Shown here: in pieces, positions 14,525 to 16,971 of the stretch
Numbering within the stretch: the stretch's first letter is position 1
Layout: each line of letters opens with the position of its first letter
Assembly (NCBI GenBank): GCA_965261025.1
Contig: OZ253438.1
Span: 720,001 to 752,000 of the forward strand
Length of the DNA stretch: 32,000 nt
Direction: 5' to 3'
Source: Chlamydiales bacterium
GTDB taxonomy: Bacteria > Chlamydiota > Chlamydiia > Chlamydiales > SM23-39
The notes under the pieces: generated by a model
What the model saw: only the letters and a program-made list of their open reading frames with translations
Told to the model about the DNA's origin: nothing
Databases searched by the model: none
Made by a program: the position numbers and the translations under genes

Positions 14525-14959
14525 ATGTCCCCCGTAGAAAATAGCGCCCATTATACTGTTGGTTTTGAATTATACGACGAAGAATTTACTTCAAAGAGAC
14601 TTGAAGAGGAAGAGAAGCAGGAAAGTCAACTTGCTACTCGGGATGGACTACTGAAAAAAATATCATCAGGACCTGCTCATATCATAACGGTTGTGACAGA
14701 CGAATTCGATCCTACCTGCACCTGCGTAAATGCAGTTTCCGCTCACTATTTACTCCAACAGGGGCTGCTTTTCGTTTCAGCTACCCCTTCTAAGAACAAG
14801 ATAACGATAACAAGACACTACGACCTTTATTCGAGTGCAGAAGACACAACCAAAATGACAAACCTTAACAACTTAACAAAGCGGTTTCCTTTTGCTAAAC
14901 AAGTCTCCTCCCGAGAAGTGGTTATCGACCGAGTGGACTCTGCTGCTAACCTGAAGTAG
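14525..14959 (+). CDS. Hypothetical acidic protein (144 aa), orphan
   Basis: GGAG lies 6 nt upstream of the ATG. Codon and amino-acid usage (T, V, D, R, C-rich) look different from the flanking K/L/F/E-rich housekeeping genes. No motif recognised. Confidence 0.6.
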   Translation: MSPVENSAHYTVGFELYDEEFTSKRLEEEEKQESQLATRDGLLKKISSGPAHIITVVTDEFDPTCTCVNAVSAHYLLQQGLLFVSATPSKNKITITRHYDLYSSAEDTTKMTNLNNLTKRFPFAKQVSSREVVIDRVDSAANLK

Positions 14960-14984: not shown

Positions 14985-15009
14985 GGACCTAGACAATCCT
15001 GCTAGGTCC
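14985..15009. terminator. Hairpin between convergent genes (possible bidirectional terminator)
   Basis: GGACCTAG (14985-14992) pairs with CTAGGTCC (15002-15009) around a 9-nt loop. The downstream arm overlaps the TAG stop of the minus-strand dioxygenase gene. On the plus strand it is followed by CTTTCGATCTT. Confidence 0.35.
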
Positions 15010-15916
15010 CTTTCGATCTTCCCCTGGTCGGAGTGGCAAAATGAAAAGCTGGATTATCGGAATCTTCCCGTTTTTTTTGGTAATAAGTGGCCCTGTGCTC
15101 TCCTTCTGCTCCTCGATTTAAGGTAAAGAGCATAGCTCTTCTAGGCGTAGAACTGGCGTTTGGTTCTGAGTAGTGAGGGACAAAAGAAGTTATCAAGATC
15201 ACGTCCCCAGGCTGGCTTTCTAAAGGAATCCACTGTATCTGATCTGAAAATCTTTTTTCGATAGAGCCATGAGCTTTACCCCCTTTCACATAGGGCAAAA
15301 TTGCTTTACCTTGTCTTAACTTATCAGACTCCACTTCTGGATTTTCCATAAAAGTACTTTTCCAATCCTGAGCTACTTGCAGGCATCCGTTTTCCACCGT
15401 TGCCTCATCAATTGCAACCATGGCTGTTATATGGACTTTTGGTCCAAAAAAATCATAGGCTGGAAAATCCTGGTGAGGCAAAAAGGCTCCCCCTCCTGGC
15501 CATTTGAAATTTAACTTATCTTTAAATGGTATGTAAGATTCTCCCATCAAATTAGCAATAAAGGGAAGTAAGGTTCTTTCAATCAAGGAACACAGCCCTG
15601 GATAGCAGCTAAGCATATCTTCTGATCTACAAATCTGTTTTTGATTCTCTACCTCTGGAACAACGATTAAAGAACGAGGCATCTGATAGGCCAAGGCTTG
15701 CGGCGTAGTATCTAATCTCTCAGCCAGTTCTAACAACTGCTTTGATTCTTTGTGAATTTCTTCAGAGTATTCTCTCAAAAGCCTTACCTGCTCTTTTGAA
15801 TAAAAATTTCGGACTACCAGGTAGCCGTACTTATTAAAAAATATTTTCTGTTCCTCAATTTCTGAAGCCCAAGTATGAGCTAATCCCAGAAGTAAAATAA
15901 CCCATCTATACCTCAT
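15002..15916 (-). CDS. PhyH-family (phytanoyl-CoA dioxygenase-like) Fe(II)/2-oxoglutarate dioxygenase with an N-terminal signal peptide
   Basis: HxD motif in LPHQDFPAY. Family blocks ITAMVAIDEATVENGCLQVAQ and GDVILITSFVPHYSEPN...PRRAM are present. The N-terminus MRYRWVILLLGLAHTWA/SE looks like a cleavable Sec signal. GGAG lies 7 nt upstream, and the ATG overlaps the upstream stop (ATGA). Confidence 0.85.
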   Translation of the reverse strand: MRYRWVILLLGLAHTWASEIEEQKIFFNKYGYLVVRNFYSKEQVRLLREYSEEIHKESKQLLELAERLDTTPQALAYQMPRSLIVVPEVENQKQICRSEDMLSCYPGLCSLIERTLLPFIANLMGESYIPFKDKLNFKWPGGGAFLPHQDFPAYDFFGPKVHITAMVAIDEATVENGCLQVAQDWKSTFMENPEVESDKLRQGKAILPYVKGGKAHGSIEKRFSDQIQWIPLESQPGDVILITSFVPHYSEPNASSTPRRAMLFTLNRGAEGEHRATYYQKKREDSDNPAFHFATPTRGRSKGT

Positions 15917-16389
15917 TGAAATTCTCCTTCTTTATGTCTTTCGATAATTCTATTGATGATTTCTGTAGTAGAAATTCCTTTTGTATAAGGAACTGTCCGG
16001 AAGATACCCGCTTTCAAAGCAGCTCCATACTGATCTTCAATAAGAGCCTGATCAAAATCGTCTCCATGAATTACATAGTCAATTTCCCACTCTTTTATCA
16101 TTTCTTTTGTCAGCCTAATCGGGGGGGCTTCAATCACTTCATCTACTAAAGAACAGGCTCTAATTGTTCTTACCCTTTCTTCCAAGGTAAGCACAGGAAT
16201 CCTTTTGTATTCTCCTACACTCTCATCTGCAAGCACTCCTACTATCAAGTAATCCCCAAAAGATTTAGCTTGTTTTAAAAACTCAATATGTCCTGCATGA
16301 AATAAATCTCCTACGATATCCACATAAACCCGCGTCTTGGCTTGAAGCATGCTACAAGCTGCAAGAAAACAAAAAAACCATCGAACCAT
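15913..16389 (-). CDS. Cytidylyltransferase of the CCT/ECT/GCT (HxGH) family with a hydrophobic, lipobox-like leader
   Basis: GDLFHAGH supplies the HxGH motif and KGISTTEIINRI the RTxGISTT signature. Blocks RVYVD, YLIVGVLADE, VDEVIEAP and IDYVIHGDD align with eukaryotic choline/ethanolamine-phosphate cytidylyltransferase cores. N-terminus is MVRWFFCFLAAC. SD GAGAGG lies 7 nt before ATG 16389. Confidence 0.8.
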   Translation of the reverse strand: MVRWFFCFLAACSMLQAKTRVYVDIVGDLFHAGHIEFLKQAKSFGDYLIVGVLADESVGEYKRIPVLTLEERVRTIRACSLVDEVIEAPPIRLTKEMIKEWEIDYVIHGDDFDQALIEDQYGAALKAGIFRTVPYTKGISTTEIINRIIERHKEGEFQ

Positions 16390-16480
16390 AAAAAAACCTC
16401 TCGCTAAATTATCAAGAAATAGAAAAGCCTACCCTTTTTAGGAACAATATAGCATCAGATGCCGCACAGAACTGTTTTAT

Positions 16481-16489
16481 CCCCCCCCC
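16481..16489. repeat. Homopolymeric C9 (G9 on the minus strand) tract
   Basis: Nine consecutive C, 92-100 nt upstream of the minus-strand cytidylyltransferase start, inside a 507-bp ORF-free spacer. Confidence 0.9.
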
Positions 16490-16748
16490 TTCCTAAAAGC
16501 CCCTATATCGTCATCCGATCAAAAAGACTCATCCTATCCACTACAACAAAAAAGTAAGGGTAAGCAAATAAAGATAAATTAATCCCACTATGCGCATAAT
16601 TCCCCCTCAAACCAATTCACTAAAACCAAGCTGCAAGGTTCTCGGCAAGGGATTTTATACCCTTCCCAAGATTTAGGTTGCAATCGCAAAAGTTTTCTCT
16701 TGGGAAAATTTATGACAAAAGCGGGAAAGACCAGGACTTCCACCCTAA

Positions 16749-16771
16749 AAGATCACATATTTTGTGATCTT
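16749..16771. repeat. Perfect 9-bp inverted repeat (operator- or hairpin-like)
   Basis: AAGATCACA-tattt-TGTGATCTT. It lies about 80 nt upstream of the putative tRNA-His promoter. No U-tract follows on either strand. Confidence 0.5.
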
Positions 16772-16851
16772 GCCTAGACATCAAAACCTTCTACCATCCC
16801 CAATAGACAGAAGTATAGGAGAAGGGCCTCTAGCTTGTCCCCCTATTTCCT

Positions 16852-16881
16852 TTGACCAAAAACCTCTCTTTACGGTATAAG
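16852..16881 (+). promoter_or_regulatory. Putative sigma-70/66 promoter of tRNA-His (and possibly uppP-ftsK)
   Basis: TTGACC (16852-16857), an 18-nt spacer, then TATAAG (16876-16881). The predicted start lies about 8 nt before the tRNA 5' end. Confidence 0.45.
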
Positions 16882-16896
16882 GGTTCTGCTTTCTGT

Positions 16897-16971
16897 GGCG
16901 ATTGTAGCTCAGTTGGTTAGAGCGCTGGATTGTGGTTCCGGAGGTCGCGGGTTCGAGCCCCGTCAATCGCC
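16897..16971 (+). tRNA. tRNA-His (anticodon GTG) with genomically encoded G-1 pairing to C73; no encoded CCA
   Basis: Hand-folded cloverleaf. Acceptor stem is GCGATTG/CAATCGC, D arm GCTC..GAGC and anticodon stem CTGGA/TCCGG. The anticodon loop TTGTGGT gives GTG. Variable loop is AGGTC and the T arm GCGGG-TTCGAGC-CCCGT. An extra 5' G at 16897 faces C at 16971, as expected for bacterial tRNA-His. Confidence 0.95.

Follow-up and report, generated by a model that had tools for sequence, protein, structure and literature searches.

A coupled cytidylyltransferase–dioxygenase gene pair with predicted signal peptides in Chlamydiota: a candidate module for phosphonate head-group tailoring

Cytidylyltransferases (CTs) and PhyH-family dioxygenases normally work in the cytosol, the former requiring CTP and the latter Fe2+, 2-oxoglutarate (2OG) and O2. 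In the stretch of chlamydial DNA analysed here (32,000 nucleotides, hereafter the window), two overlapping genes encode one enzyme of each family and both products begin with a hydrophobic leader, which raises the question of what such a pair does and in which compartment. For Gram-negative bacteria, we know of no precedent for extracytoplasmic reactions that depend on CTP, Fe(II) and 2OG. Here, we report an analysis of the sequences, predicted structures, phylogeny and genomic context of this pair. We give an even chance to the interpretation that it is a two-enzyme phosphonate head-group tailoring module, fitted by Chlamydiota with Sec signal peptides and followed by LicD-type transfer.

Table 1. 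Features of the gene pair, in positions of the window
Feature	Position	Strand	Remarks
Transferase ORF, 158 aa with leader	15913..16389	minus	PF01467 cytidylyltransferase, phosphonate-tailoring CT clade; stop TGA 15915-15913
Dioxygenase ORF, 304 aa with leader	15002..15916	minus	PhyH-family Fe(II)/2-oxoglutarate dioxygenase, PhnY*-like phosphonate alpha-hydroxylase clade
ATGA stop/start overlap, translational coupling	15913..15916	minus	read from sequence
Shine-Dalgarno GAGAGG	16397..16402	minus	7 nt 5' of ATG 16389
Shine-Dalgarno GGAG	15924..15927	minus	7 nt 5' of ATG 15916; within the 3' end of the transferase gene
Transferase leader, residues 1-17, MVRWFFCFLAACSMLQA	16339..16389	minus	predicted Sec/SPase I signal peptide, cleavage after LQA
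Dioxygenase leader, residues 1-17, MRYRWVILLLGLAHTWA	15866..15916	minus	predicted Sec/SPase I signal peptide

The sequence-only reading of this locus described two minus-strand ORFs with a 4-nt ATGA overlap and a Shine-Dalgarno sequence for each, and all of these were found (Table 1). The -4 overlap recurs in three other chlamydial loci (L003, L007, L021); elsewhere the junction of the two genes is -1 (L016), 0 (L019), +1 (L096) or +4 (L024). Promoter and terminator scans gave no signal above that of shuffled sequences, and an Rfam scan returned tRNA-His alone. Of about 25 informative loci in chlamydial genomes, 11 have the CT gene next to the PhyH gene, and no other neighbour recurs; the two genes are unlinked in roughly half of the loci. 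Furthermore, 26 of the best 120 matches of each protein fall on equal-sized contigs. The APH-kinase and ExoD neighbours of one PhyH gene (L001) were dropped as not recurrent. These observations support a conserved, translationally coupled pair.

The family assignments made from the sequence hold in profile searches: the transferase matches PF01467 (CTP_transf_like; 5e-22, 78.9 bits, cutoff 21) and the dioxygenase PF05721 (PhyH; 1e-21, 78.5 bits). The HxGH and GISTT motifs reported for the transferase are present, the former as HAGH at residues 31-34, with H31-A-G-H34 invariant, and the latter within KGISTT at 137-142. Among solved structures, the best matches are ECT (3elb, 92 bits) and CCT (89 bits), at 36-40% identity and a TM score of about 0.7-0.8, with the Fom1 CyTase at 59 bits. 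The AF2 model (pLDDT 87.5) has a Rossmann-like CT fold and, as the structure comparison suggested earlier confirmed, retrieves CCT, ECT and Fom1 in Foldseek at E values of about 1e-13 to 1e-11. The chlamydial CT shares HxGH and GISTT with ECT (Pcyt2) and CCT but differs from both in architecture. Its 158 aa make up one domain, unlike the tandem N- and C-terminal CT domains of ECT, and its chain stops about 10 residues past the catalytic core, without the C-terminal amphipathic membrane-binding (M) domain and regulatory tail of CCT. In addition, the Arg of the RTxGISTT motif is replaced by Tyr135 (PYTKGISTT), a signature common to cluster-linked CTs and absent from ECT.

In phylogenetic trees, the ECT N- and C-domains each form a clade in 60/60 bootstraps, and a non-ECT clade is split from both in 58/60; the chlamydial CTs (60/60) are nested inside this non-ECT clade, among prokaryotic CTs that have no leader and are encoded in Ppm/Ppd/AEPT, CDP-OH-transferase and LicD loci. 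Genes for these relatives, at 50-55% identity, lie directly 3' of Ppm-Ppd-AEPT (L139, L147, L154, L157), between a CDP-OH transferase and LicD (L132, L133, L137, L138, L144) or next to LicD (16-17 loci). In one locus (L160) the order is CT, CDP-OH transferase, PhyH, and CTs of the same clade are also fused with LicD. The loci of this prokaryotic clade are phosphonate (2-aminoethylphosphonate, AEP) head-group tailoring loci, and the chlamydial transferase belongs with the phosphonate-tailoring CTs of the PF01467 type, Ppm-fused or -adjacent.

The resemblance to ECT and CCT nevertheless calls for weighing a role in phosphate-ester metabolism, in which the CT would make CDP-ethanolamine or CDP-choline in a lic-like route with LicD, and the dioxygenase would act on an amino-alcohol head group or something unrelated. 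Such substrates would fit the best solved-structure matches and the lack of a nearby Ppm gene; LicD in its classical role transfers phosphocholine, JGI names some chlamydial LicD proteins accordingly, and the chlamydial dioxygenases have conserved aromatic residues of their own (see below). The closest CT relatives, however, are encoded immediately downstream of phosphonate biosynthesis genes, the Arg-to-Tyr replacement is that of phosphonate-linked CTs, and all close PhyH relatives come from phosphonate biosynthetic or PhnZ catabolic contexts, so that we consider phosphate-ester substrates decidedly unlikely.

In the dioxygenase, the PhyH signature noted from the sequence is present; the HxD...H facial triad and the Arg for the C5 carboxylate of 2OG correspond to H148-x-D150, H248 and R259/R260, invariant across 33 homologues. 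The predicted structure (pLDDT 93) is a jelly-roll that matches PhyH-fold hydroxylases in Foldseek at about 1e-13; the matches in the PDB are generic PhyH-fold hydroxylases and give no substrate clue. By far the top NCBIfam match is NF052437, the PhnY* equivalog model (E 3e-39), at 135 bits against a cutoff of 500 and thus below equivalog level. Some homologues carry the source name 2-aminoethylphosphonate dioxygenase. The chlamydial, marine and Legionella groups have 38 invariant positions in common, among them the triad, R259/R260 and the K132/K134/N136/K138 strand.

The sister of the chlamydial dioxygenases is a leaderless enzyme (48% identity by tblastn, 51% over aligned columns; bootstrap 100/100) from a complete phosphonolipid-type cluster, L026, with the order Ppd-AEPT-PhyH...Ppm::NTP_transf_3, NTP_transf_3, CDP-OH_P_transf. 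A marine PhnZ-linked group joins the two in 88/100 bootstraps. The next relatives, in 33 non-chlamydial loci, always adjoin or are fused to PhnZ-type HD oxygenases (TIGR03276, 177-203 bits); PhnZ-linked homologues include those of amoeba-associated Legionella and Coxiellaceae. All of the nearest outgroups are phosphonate-context enzymes. By sequence, the dioxygenase is therefore a member of the PhnY*-type phosphonate alpha-hydroxylase clade. Residues D100, F137, W139, F151, W185 and H216 are conserved specifically in chlamydiae and may mean another substrate. Strand alternation suggests that F137 and W139 point away from the K134/N136/K138 face. We also weighed an aromatic cage for a quaternary ammonium substrate, formed by F137, W139, F151 and W185, and did not adopt it.

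The trees also bear on the description of the pair as eukaryote-type enzymes. Resemblance of the CT to ECT and CCT is real, but inter-domain transfer is not supported, since the CT lies outside the ECT clades, the dioxygenase falls among prokaryotic PhnY*-like enzymes, and the GC content of the pair matches that of its surroundings. The composition profile likewise carries no sign of recent transfer. On the basis of the trees, we rejected transfer of the two genes from eukaryotes.

Kinship with PhnZ-linked enzymes raises the possibility of phosphorus scavenging, the dioxygenase catalysing the first step of oxidative AEP breakdown, as PhnY* does, with PhnZ encoded at a separate site in the genome and the CT serving salvage or being linked incidentally. 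The occurrence of such relatives in amoeba-associated bacteria and the AEP dioxygenase annotation of some homologues would agree with this. We find it very unlikely, given that the sister enzyme is biosynthetic, that no PhnZ gene occurs in any chlamydial locus examined (+/-10 kb), and that the only recurrent partner is a CT, coupled through ATGA.

What sets the chlamydial proteins apart from these relatives is their N-termini. Leaders were called by a heuristic test for n-, h- and c-regions combined with alignments. Among the best ~120 chlamydial matches of each protein, 110/120 PhyH homologues (92%) and 106/119 CT homologues (89%) appear signal-peptide-like, compared with 1/31 of the PhyH relatives from outside Chlamydiota and 26% of the remaining ORFs of the chlamydial loci. 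Within the window, the heuristic flags the periplasmic HtrA but no cytoplasmic housekeeping enzyme; further proteins flagged are FtsK, one hypothetical ORF and a protein with a metallo-beta-lactamase fold. The leaders have basic N-termini, a median h-region of 14 residues, small residues at -3/-1 and acidic residues after the site. In 158-aa homologues of the transferase, identity is 34% in the leader versus 62% in the mature part, and in the model residues 2-13 form a helix detached from the fold. Leaderless CT relatives begin 2-12 residues before RVYVD, and the non-chlamydial dioxygenase relatives, including the L026 sister, begin at the predicted mature start.

Accordingly, the hydrophobic leaders pointed out from the sequence are real and far above chance, and orthologues lacking them are the exception. 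The lipobox-like LAAC reported for the transferase fares differently. A motif of this type ([LVI][ASTVI][GAS]C) occurs in 5/119 CT and 1/120 PhyH homologues, whereas an SPase-I-type site, ...LQA|ET or ...LHA|ET, is conserved just ahead of the first beta-strand (RVYVD) of the CT; we rejected a lipoprotein (SPase II) reading. The leaders are predicted to be Sec/SPase I signal peptides specific to the chlamydial versions of both enzymes, and their pattern predicts an N-in/C-out orientation.

Could the leaders exist without export, either as uncleaved tethers that hold cytoplasmic enzymes at the inner membrane or as an artefact of start-codon choice? The deposited annotation of the transferase begins at Met14 (P0121, 145 aa), the cofactor needs of both enzymes fit a cytoplasmic location, and the h-regions, although short, could insert into the membrane. 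Yet homologues at 73-77% identity align across all 158 residues, leader included, and the Shine-Dalgarno sequence precedes Met1, not Met14, which supports Met1 as the start and corrects the database start codon that hides the leader. The leaders moreover conform to the signal-peptide pattern from basic N-terminus to acidic residues and, for both proteins, persist in about 90% of the homologues. Leaders that do not lead to export therefore seem most improbable.

Under the tailoring interpretation, both enzymes would be exported via Sec and their leaders cleaved, and we infer that they would operate in the periplasm rather than in the inclusion lumen or the host. With Fe(II), 2-oxoglutarate and O2, the dioxygenase would add a hydroxyl group to C1 of AEP or of a close analogue, either free or conjugated, and the CT would convert CTP and AEP or 1-hydroxy-AEP into CMP-(hydroxy)AEP and PPi. 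No Ppm, Ppd or AEPT gene was found in the window or within +/-10 kb in any chlamydial locus examined, and the phosphonate source is therefore assumed. The substrates of the module are probably host-derived: AEP and CTP would come from the host, and a host supply of 2-oxoglutarate is assumed by analogy. Host NTPs enter chlamydiae through NTT carriers and must therefore cross the periplasm.

The activated head group would then be passed to an envelope glycoconjugate or lipid by a LicD-type phosphotransferase of the kind widespread in the same chlamydial lineages. The LicD family counts 570 members with names from Chlamydiales/Parachlamydiales, and its matches have 7 equal-sized contigs in common with those of CT and PhyH. 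In two chlamydial loci only (L018, L095), a LicD gene is adjacent to the CT gene, upstream of it; no CDP-OH transferase was found in the chlamydial loci examined. The membrane topology of chlamydial LicD is ambiguous. This family is the likely downstream transferase.

Secretion beyond the periplasm has to be considered as well. Following Sec, the two proteins might travel by type II secretion or in vesicles and act as effectors on host phosphonate, Kennedy-pathway intermediates or vacuole-lining lipophosphonoglycan, either in the lumen of the inclusion or in the host cytosol. Conserved Sec-type leaders would serve this purpose too, the host cytosol is rich in CTP, Fe(II) and 2OG, and the CT fold is nearly identical to that of ECT and CCT. 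AEP and HAEP are plentiful in hosts such as Acanthamoeba: lipophosphonoglycan makes up about 30% of the Acanthamoeba plasma membrane (PMC2109393), and HAEP has been found in Acanthamoeba polysaccharide as well as in lipids of Bdellovibrio stolpii (PMC8154272). Nevertheless, the sequences hold no sign of passage past the periplasm, free-living bacteria use the related enzymes to build their own surface, and self-decoration better fits co-occurrence of the chlamydial LicD family with the pair. We regard an effector role as unlikely. Head-group activation plus hydroxylation outside the cytoplasm, as proposed from the sequence, stays the best interpretation of the pair; the evidence now points to AEP-type phosphonates, with export and substrates being predictions.

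The proposed module has counterparts in several known systems. Oxidative AEP catabolism by PhnY* and PhnZ was reportedly described by McSorley et al. in 2012, with PhnY*/PhnZ1 of Gimesia maris as an example. The chlamydial dioxygenase belongs to the same PhyH subfamily, sharing the 38 invariant positions with their metal, 2OG and Lys/Asn strand residues, and the same chemistry is predicted, namely hydroxylation alpha to phosphorus; unlike PhnY*, it has a leader and a CT partner but no PhnZ, and is 34-42% identical to PhnZ-linked enzymes. The lic pathway (LicC/LicD) similarly passes a CDP- or CMP-activated head group to a LicD-family transferase, and LicD adjoins or is fused to CTs of the chlamydial CT's clade. 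In contrast, LicC has another fold, lic enzymes work on the cytoplasmic face, and the chlamydial pair comes without a linked kinase or transporter.

Closest in composition is the "Group 1" core of phosphonolipid gene clusters, which is said to go back to Yu et al. in 2013. This core (Burkholderiales_CDP-OH) consists of one or more CTs that use AEP, an alpha-KG/Fe(II) oxygenase whose predicted product is 1-hydroxy-AEP, and a transferase (Li & Horsman 2022, PMC8942020). The L026 cluster, source of the sister dioxygenase, has this architecture; the chlamydial loci examined differ from it in lacking Ppm, Ppd, AEPT and CDP-OH transferase, in the signal peptides on both enzymes, which the cluster enzymes lack, and in a CT of the PF01467 type where L026 uses NTP_transf_3 PntCs. 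CTP activation of a phosphonate is known from the Fom1 CyTase (PDB 5X3D) and PntC (Rice et al. 2019, PMC6697681), neither of which is exported. Fom1 CyTase has the PF01467 fold and matches the chlamydial CT in sequence and structure, but is fused to Ppm and acts on 2-hydroxyethylphosphonate, whereas characterised PntC has the LicC/NTP_transf_3 fold; 23.6% of Ppm proteins carry a fused PF01467 domain (PMC6697681). The assertion that no described system pairs the two families hence has to be narrowed: the predicted Group 1 core does so, and in the literature searched we came across neither an exported chlamydial version that stands alone nor phosphonate metabolism in Chlamydiota. Particular to the chlamydial pair is that it stands alone and that both proteins carry predicted Sec-type leaders.

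A more specific proposal, possible rather than probable in our view, is that in environmental chlamydiae CTP and AEP are converted into CMP-AEP in the periplasm, alongside Fe(II)/2OG-dependent hydroxylation, both fed by host CTP, 2OG and phosphonate in transit to bacterial importers, and that (hydroxy)AEP coats the envelope. If true, this would be NTP-driven head-group activation outside the cytoplasm of a Gram-negative bacterium and the first phosphonate metabolism assigned to Chlamydiota, possibly in mimicry of host lipophosphonoglycan. Conserved secretion signals on CTP- and Fe/2OG-dependent enzymes challenge the assumed absence of nucleotide-driven biosynthesis in the Gram-negative periplasm, an assumption that may not hold for an energy parasite that imports host NTPs. 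The pair also provides testable candidates for the unassigned phosphonate cytidylyltransferases of the PF01467 type and for the oxygenase that forms 1-hydroxy-AEP in phosphonolipid clusters. AEP-type compounds are plentiful in amoebae and ciliates, and the pair, together with the accompanying LicD family, suggests that many uncultured chlamydiae handle them.

The sequence-only reading of two overlapping minus-strand ORFs with an ATGA overlap and an SD sequence for each was borne out on the minus strand (table), and the catalytic motifs quoted with it were found in both proteins. The cytidylyltransferase (CT) belongs to PF01467 (CTP_transf_like, 5e-22) and the Fe(II)/2-oxoglutarate (2OG) dioxygenase (PhyH) to PF05721 (PhyH, 1e-21). 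In homologue alignments H31/H34 and the GISTT block of CT are invariant, as are H148, D150, H248 and R259/R260 of PhyH, and the AlphaFold models are confident (pLDDT 93 for PhyH, 87.5 for CT). The pair shares the GC content of its flanks and lies among ordinary chlamydial housekeeping genes (PreP, HtrA, SucCD, FtsY, PriA, tRNA-His, UppP, FtsK, E1 dehydrogenase, SerRS); the window contains no Ppm, Ppd or AEPT (the C-P bond-forming pathway), CDP-OH transferase or PhnZ. The roughly 500-nt region that separates the pair from tRNA-His yielded no Rfam match and lacks a consensus promoter, and the ORF convergent with the PhyH gene, 42 nt away, matches neither Pfam nor NCBIfam.

Features of the window and of loci carrying homologues (L-numbers)
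Feature	Location	Strand	Remarks
CT ORF	15913..16389	-	158 aa
PhyH ORF	15002..15916	-	304 aa
CT/PhyH stop/start overlap	15913-15916	-	ATGA
SD of CT	16402-16397	-	GAGAGG, 7 nt 5' of first ATG
SD of PhyH	15927-15924	-	GGAG, 7 nt 5' of second ATG
CT codons 1-14	16348-16389	-	
Intergenic region	16390-16897		
G9 run	near 16477-16485		
Convergent ORF	14525-14959	+	144 aa
Phosphonolipid-type cluster	L026:6101-17089		
B12-binding radical-SAM protein	L147:11084-12709		counterpart in L154
LicD gene	L018:7652-8755		just upstream of CT
LicD gene	L095:6201-7313		just upstream of CT
PhnZ::PhnY*-like fusion	L037:654-2099		
PhnZ::PhnY*-like fusion	L039:9446-10864		
PhnZ::PhnY*-like fusion	L045:6770-8116		

Both proteins had been said to begin with hydrophobic, signal-like leaders, and their homologues agree. 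Database searches returned hundreds of homologues per protein, the named ones all from Chlamydiales, Parachlamydiales, Rhabdochlamydiaceae or Simkaniaceae MAGs, and nearly all begin with basic residues, followed by a hydrophobic run of some 14 residues, a small-x-small site and then acidic residues. By a heuristic n/h/c test, 110 of 120 PhyH and 106 of 119 CT homologues are signal-peptide-like; the figures are 1 of 31 for non-chlamydial PhyH relatives and 26% for other ORFs of the chlamydial loci. Inside the window the test picked out HtrA, which is periplasmic, and spared every cytoplasmic housekeeping enzyme; FtsK, one hypothetical ORF and a protein with a metallo-beta-lactamase fold were flagged as well. 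Identity among CT homologues is 34% in the leader versus 62% in the mature part, as is typical for signal peptides, and leaderless relatives start at the predicted mature N-terminus of the chlamydial proteins. By these comparisons the leaders are genuine, conserved and specific to chlamydiae, and export of both enzymes is predicted. The proposed 'LAAC' lipobox did not hold up: a motif of this kind occurs in only 5 of 119 CT homologues, and the conserved site is of the SPase I type (...LQA|ET). The deposited CT annotation begins at Met14 (protein match P0121, 145 aa) and thus omits the conserved leader; we favour Met1 because homologues at 73-77% identity align across all 158 residues and an SD precedes it. 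A CT start at Met14, or leaders that are non-exporting membrane tethers, remains an alternative.

CT had also been taken for a eukaryote-type enzyme, a likeness that holds for the fold. Its best solved-structure matches are human ethanolamine-phosphate (ECT) and rat and Plasmodium choline-phosphate (CCT) cytidylyltransferases, followed by the CyTase domain of Fom1 (a phosphonate cytidylyltransferase), with TagD far behind. CT has neither the tandem domains and clade placement of ECT nor the M domain of CCT. Outside the chlamydial clade, an exhaustive representative search recovered two-domain eukaryotic ECTs (for example from Durusdinium and MMETSP; 35-43% identity) and single-domain or LicD-fused CTs (46-54%). 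A metagenome scan with a CT alignment proved decisive, splitting the loci cleanly into 41 with leader-bearing CTs of chlamydial type (neighbours: PhyH in 5, LicD in 1) and 29 with leaderless CTs at 50-55% identity, whose neighbours include LicD in 16 loci, a CDP-OH transferase in 6, each of Ppm, Ppd and AEPT in 4, and PhyH in a single one. The leaderless CT directly follows Ppm-Ppd-AEPT in L139, L147, L154 and L157, is flanked by CDP-alcohol phosphatidyltransferase and LicD in L132, L133, L137, L138 and L144, and in L160 begins the order CT, CDP-OH transferase, PhyH. Chlamydial CTs (60/60) nest within a leaderless prokaryotic clade that stands apart from the ECT N- and C-domains in 58 of 60 bootstraps, and both have Tyr for the Arg of the RTxGISTT motif. 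Because of the Ppm/LicD/CDP-OH contexts, the tree placement and this shared Tyr, CT, although ECT-like in fold, is best classed on sequence grounds as a PF01467-type phosphonate-tailoring cytidylyltransferase. Enzymes of the PF01467 type are fused to 23.6% of Ppm proteins (Rice et al., PMC6697681).

Several related architectures were encountered. In the Ppm-Ppd-AEPT-CT clusters of L147 and L154, a B12-binding radical-SAM protein between CT and LicD may methylate phosphonate head groups. LicD::CT fusions with N-terminal signal peptides or anchors (P0343, P0354, P0387 and, from EukProt, P0408; CT domain 44-49% identical to that of the window) are apparently further extracytoplasmic CTs, possibly of eukaryotic secretory pathways. 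In the metagenomic, chlamydial-type P0241 (293 aa) a leader precedes two tandemly duplicated CT domains, an independent mimic of the two-domain ECT architecture.

Of the NCBIfam models, only that of the methylphosphonate hydroxylase PhnY* matches PhyH strongly (135 bits, E 3e-39), far short of its equivalog cutoff of 500. PhyH is of the same subfamily as PhnY*, but lacks a PhnZ partner. Several homologues carry the source name 2-aminoethylphosphonate dioxygenase. A scan of species-representative genomes yielded three groups: Chlamydiota MAGs (45-62% identity), marine Oceanospirillaceae, Vibrio and Hyphomicrobiales (37-42%, leaderless), and Legionella, Coxiellaceae and Francisellaceae (34-38%, leaderless). 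The marine and Legionella-group enzymes adjoin or are fused to an HD-domain oxygenase of PhnZ type (TIGR03276, 177-203 bits) and are therefore members of PhnY*/PhnZ pairs that cleave C-P bonds oxidatively; for the chlamydial enzymes, a role in scavenging phosphorus, with PhnZ encoded elsewhere, remains an alternative. Invariant across the three groups are 38 positions, including the metal and 2OG ligands and the K132/K134/N136/K138 strand. D100, F137, W139, F151, W185 and H216, several of them aromatic, are conserved in chlamydial enzymes and differ in PhnZ-linked relatives, which might signal a shifted substrate. The closest non-chlamydial relative (48% by tblastn, 51% over aligned columns) is the leaderless enzyme of L026, a MAG locus labelled Candidatus Woesearchaeota, which holds a complete phosphonolipid-type cluster (FAD oxidoreductase, Ppd, AEPT (Aminotran_5), PhyH, Ppm::NTP_transf_3, NTP_transf_3, CDP-OH_P_transf). 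It is sister to the whole chlamydial clade; in NJ trees that clade received 95/100 and its union with L026 100/100.

Among the PhnZ-linked loci, those of Legionella, Coxiellaceae and Francisellaceae (L041-L066, L071) share a trio of MFS transporter (21 of 22 loci), PhnY*-like dioxygenase and PhnZ-type HD oxygenase, which suggests that amoeba-associated Legionellales use phosphonates oxidatively. PhnZ is fused with a histidine-phosphatase domain in L071, and marine gammaproteobacterial MAGs encode single-chain HD + PhyH fusions.

In chlamydial genome loci the sole recurrent neighbour of PhyH is CT, which lies next to it in 11 of roughly 25 informative loci, co-directional and upstream in 8 and divergent in 3. 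Junctions measure -4 (three loci and the window), -1, 0, +4 and +46 nt, the PhyH start of L018 being ambiguous; among the best 120 matches of each protein, 26 lie on contigs of equal size, including contigs of 1.8-2.8 kb. At the sequence level the pair is robust and widespread, and its predicted localisation is surprising. Ppm, Ppd, AEPT, CDP-OH transferase and PhnZ are absent from every chlamydial locus examined. LicD, a candidate downstream phosphotransferase, accompanies CT in L018 and L095; the chlamydial family (about 365 aa, 570 members, names from Chlamydiales and Parachlamydiales) shares seven contigs of equal size with CT or PhyH matches. Its members (P0416-P0535, L018, L095) are acidic at the N-terminus and contain one or two hydrophobic stretches, of ambiguous topology. 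A lic-like pathway with phosphate-ester substrates (P-Etn/P-Cho) remains an alternative here.

Having observed these clade placements, gene contexts and conserved motifs and leaders, we propose that the two enzymes form a module for tailoring phosphonate head groups, and infer its substrates, export, compartment and acceptor as follows. PhyH would hydroxylate 2-aminoethylphosphonate (AEP) at C1, and CT would make CMP-AEP or CMP-1-hydroxy-AEP (CMP-HAEP). In Chlamydiota the module would have been cut off from C-P bond synthesis and given Sec leaders; in the simplest account both enzymes would act in the periplasm on host-derived substrates, a LicD-type transferase then attaching the head group to a component of the envelope. 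2-Oxoglutarate is assumed to come from the host. Chlamydiae take up host NTPs via NTT carriers, and CTP must therefore pass the periplasm. AEP and HAEP are plentiful in protist hosts, Acanthamoeba among them (PMC8154272, PMC2109393). An alternative to the tailoring module is that the two enzymes are secreted as effectors and act on phosphonate or Kennedy intermediates of the host.

The combination of CT and alpha-KG oxygenase acting on AEP has already been predicted in phosphonolipid clusters, namely the 1-hydroxy-AEP 'Group 1' (PMC8942020); the literature searched contained no chlamydial form that stands alone and bears leaders. As a proposed tailoring module, the pair would be a first sign that phosphonates play a part in chlamydial biology.
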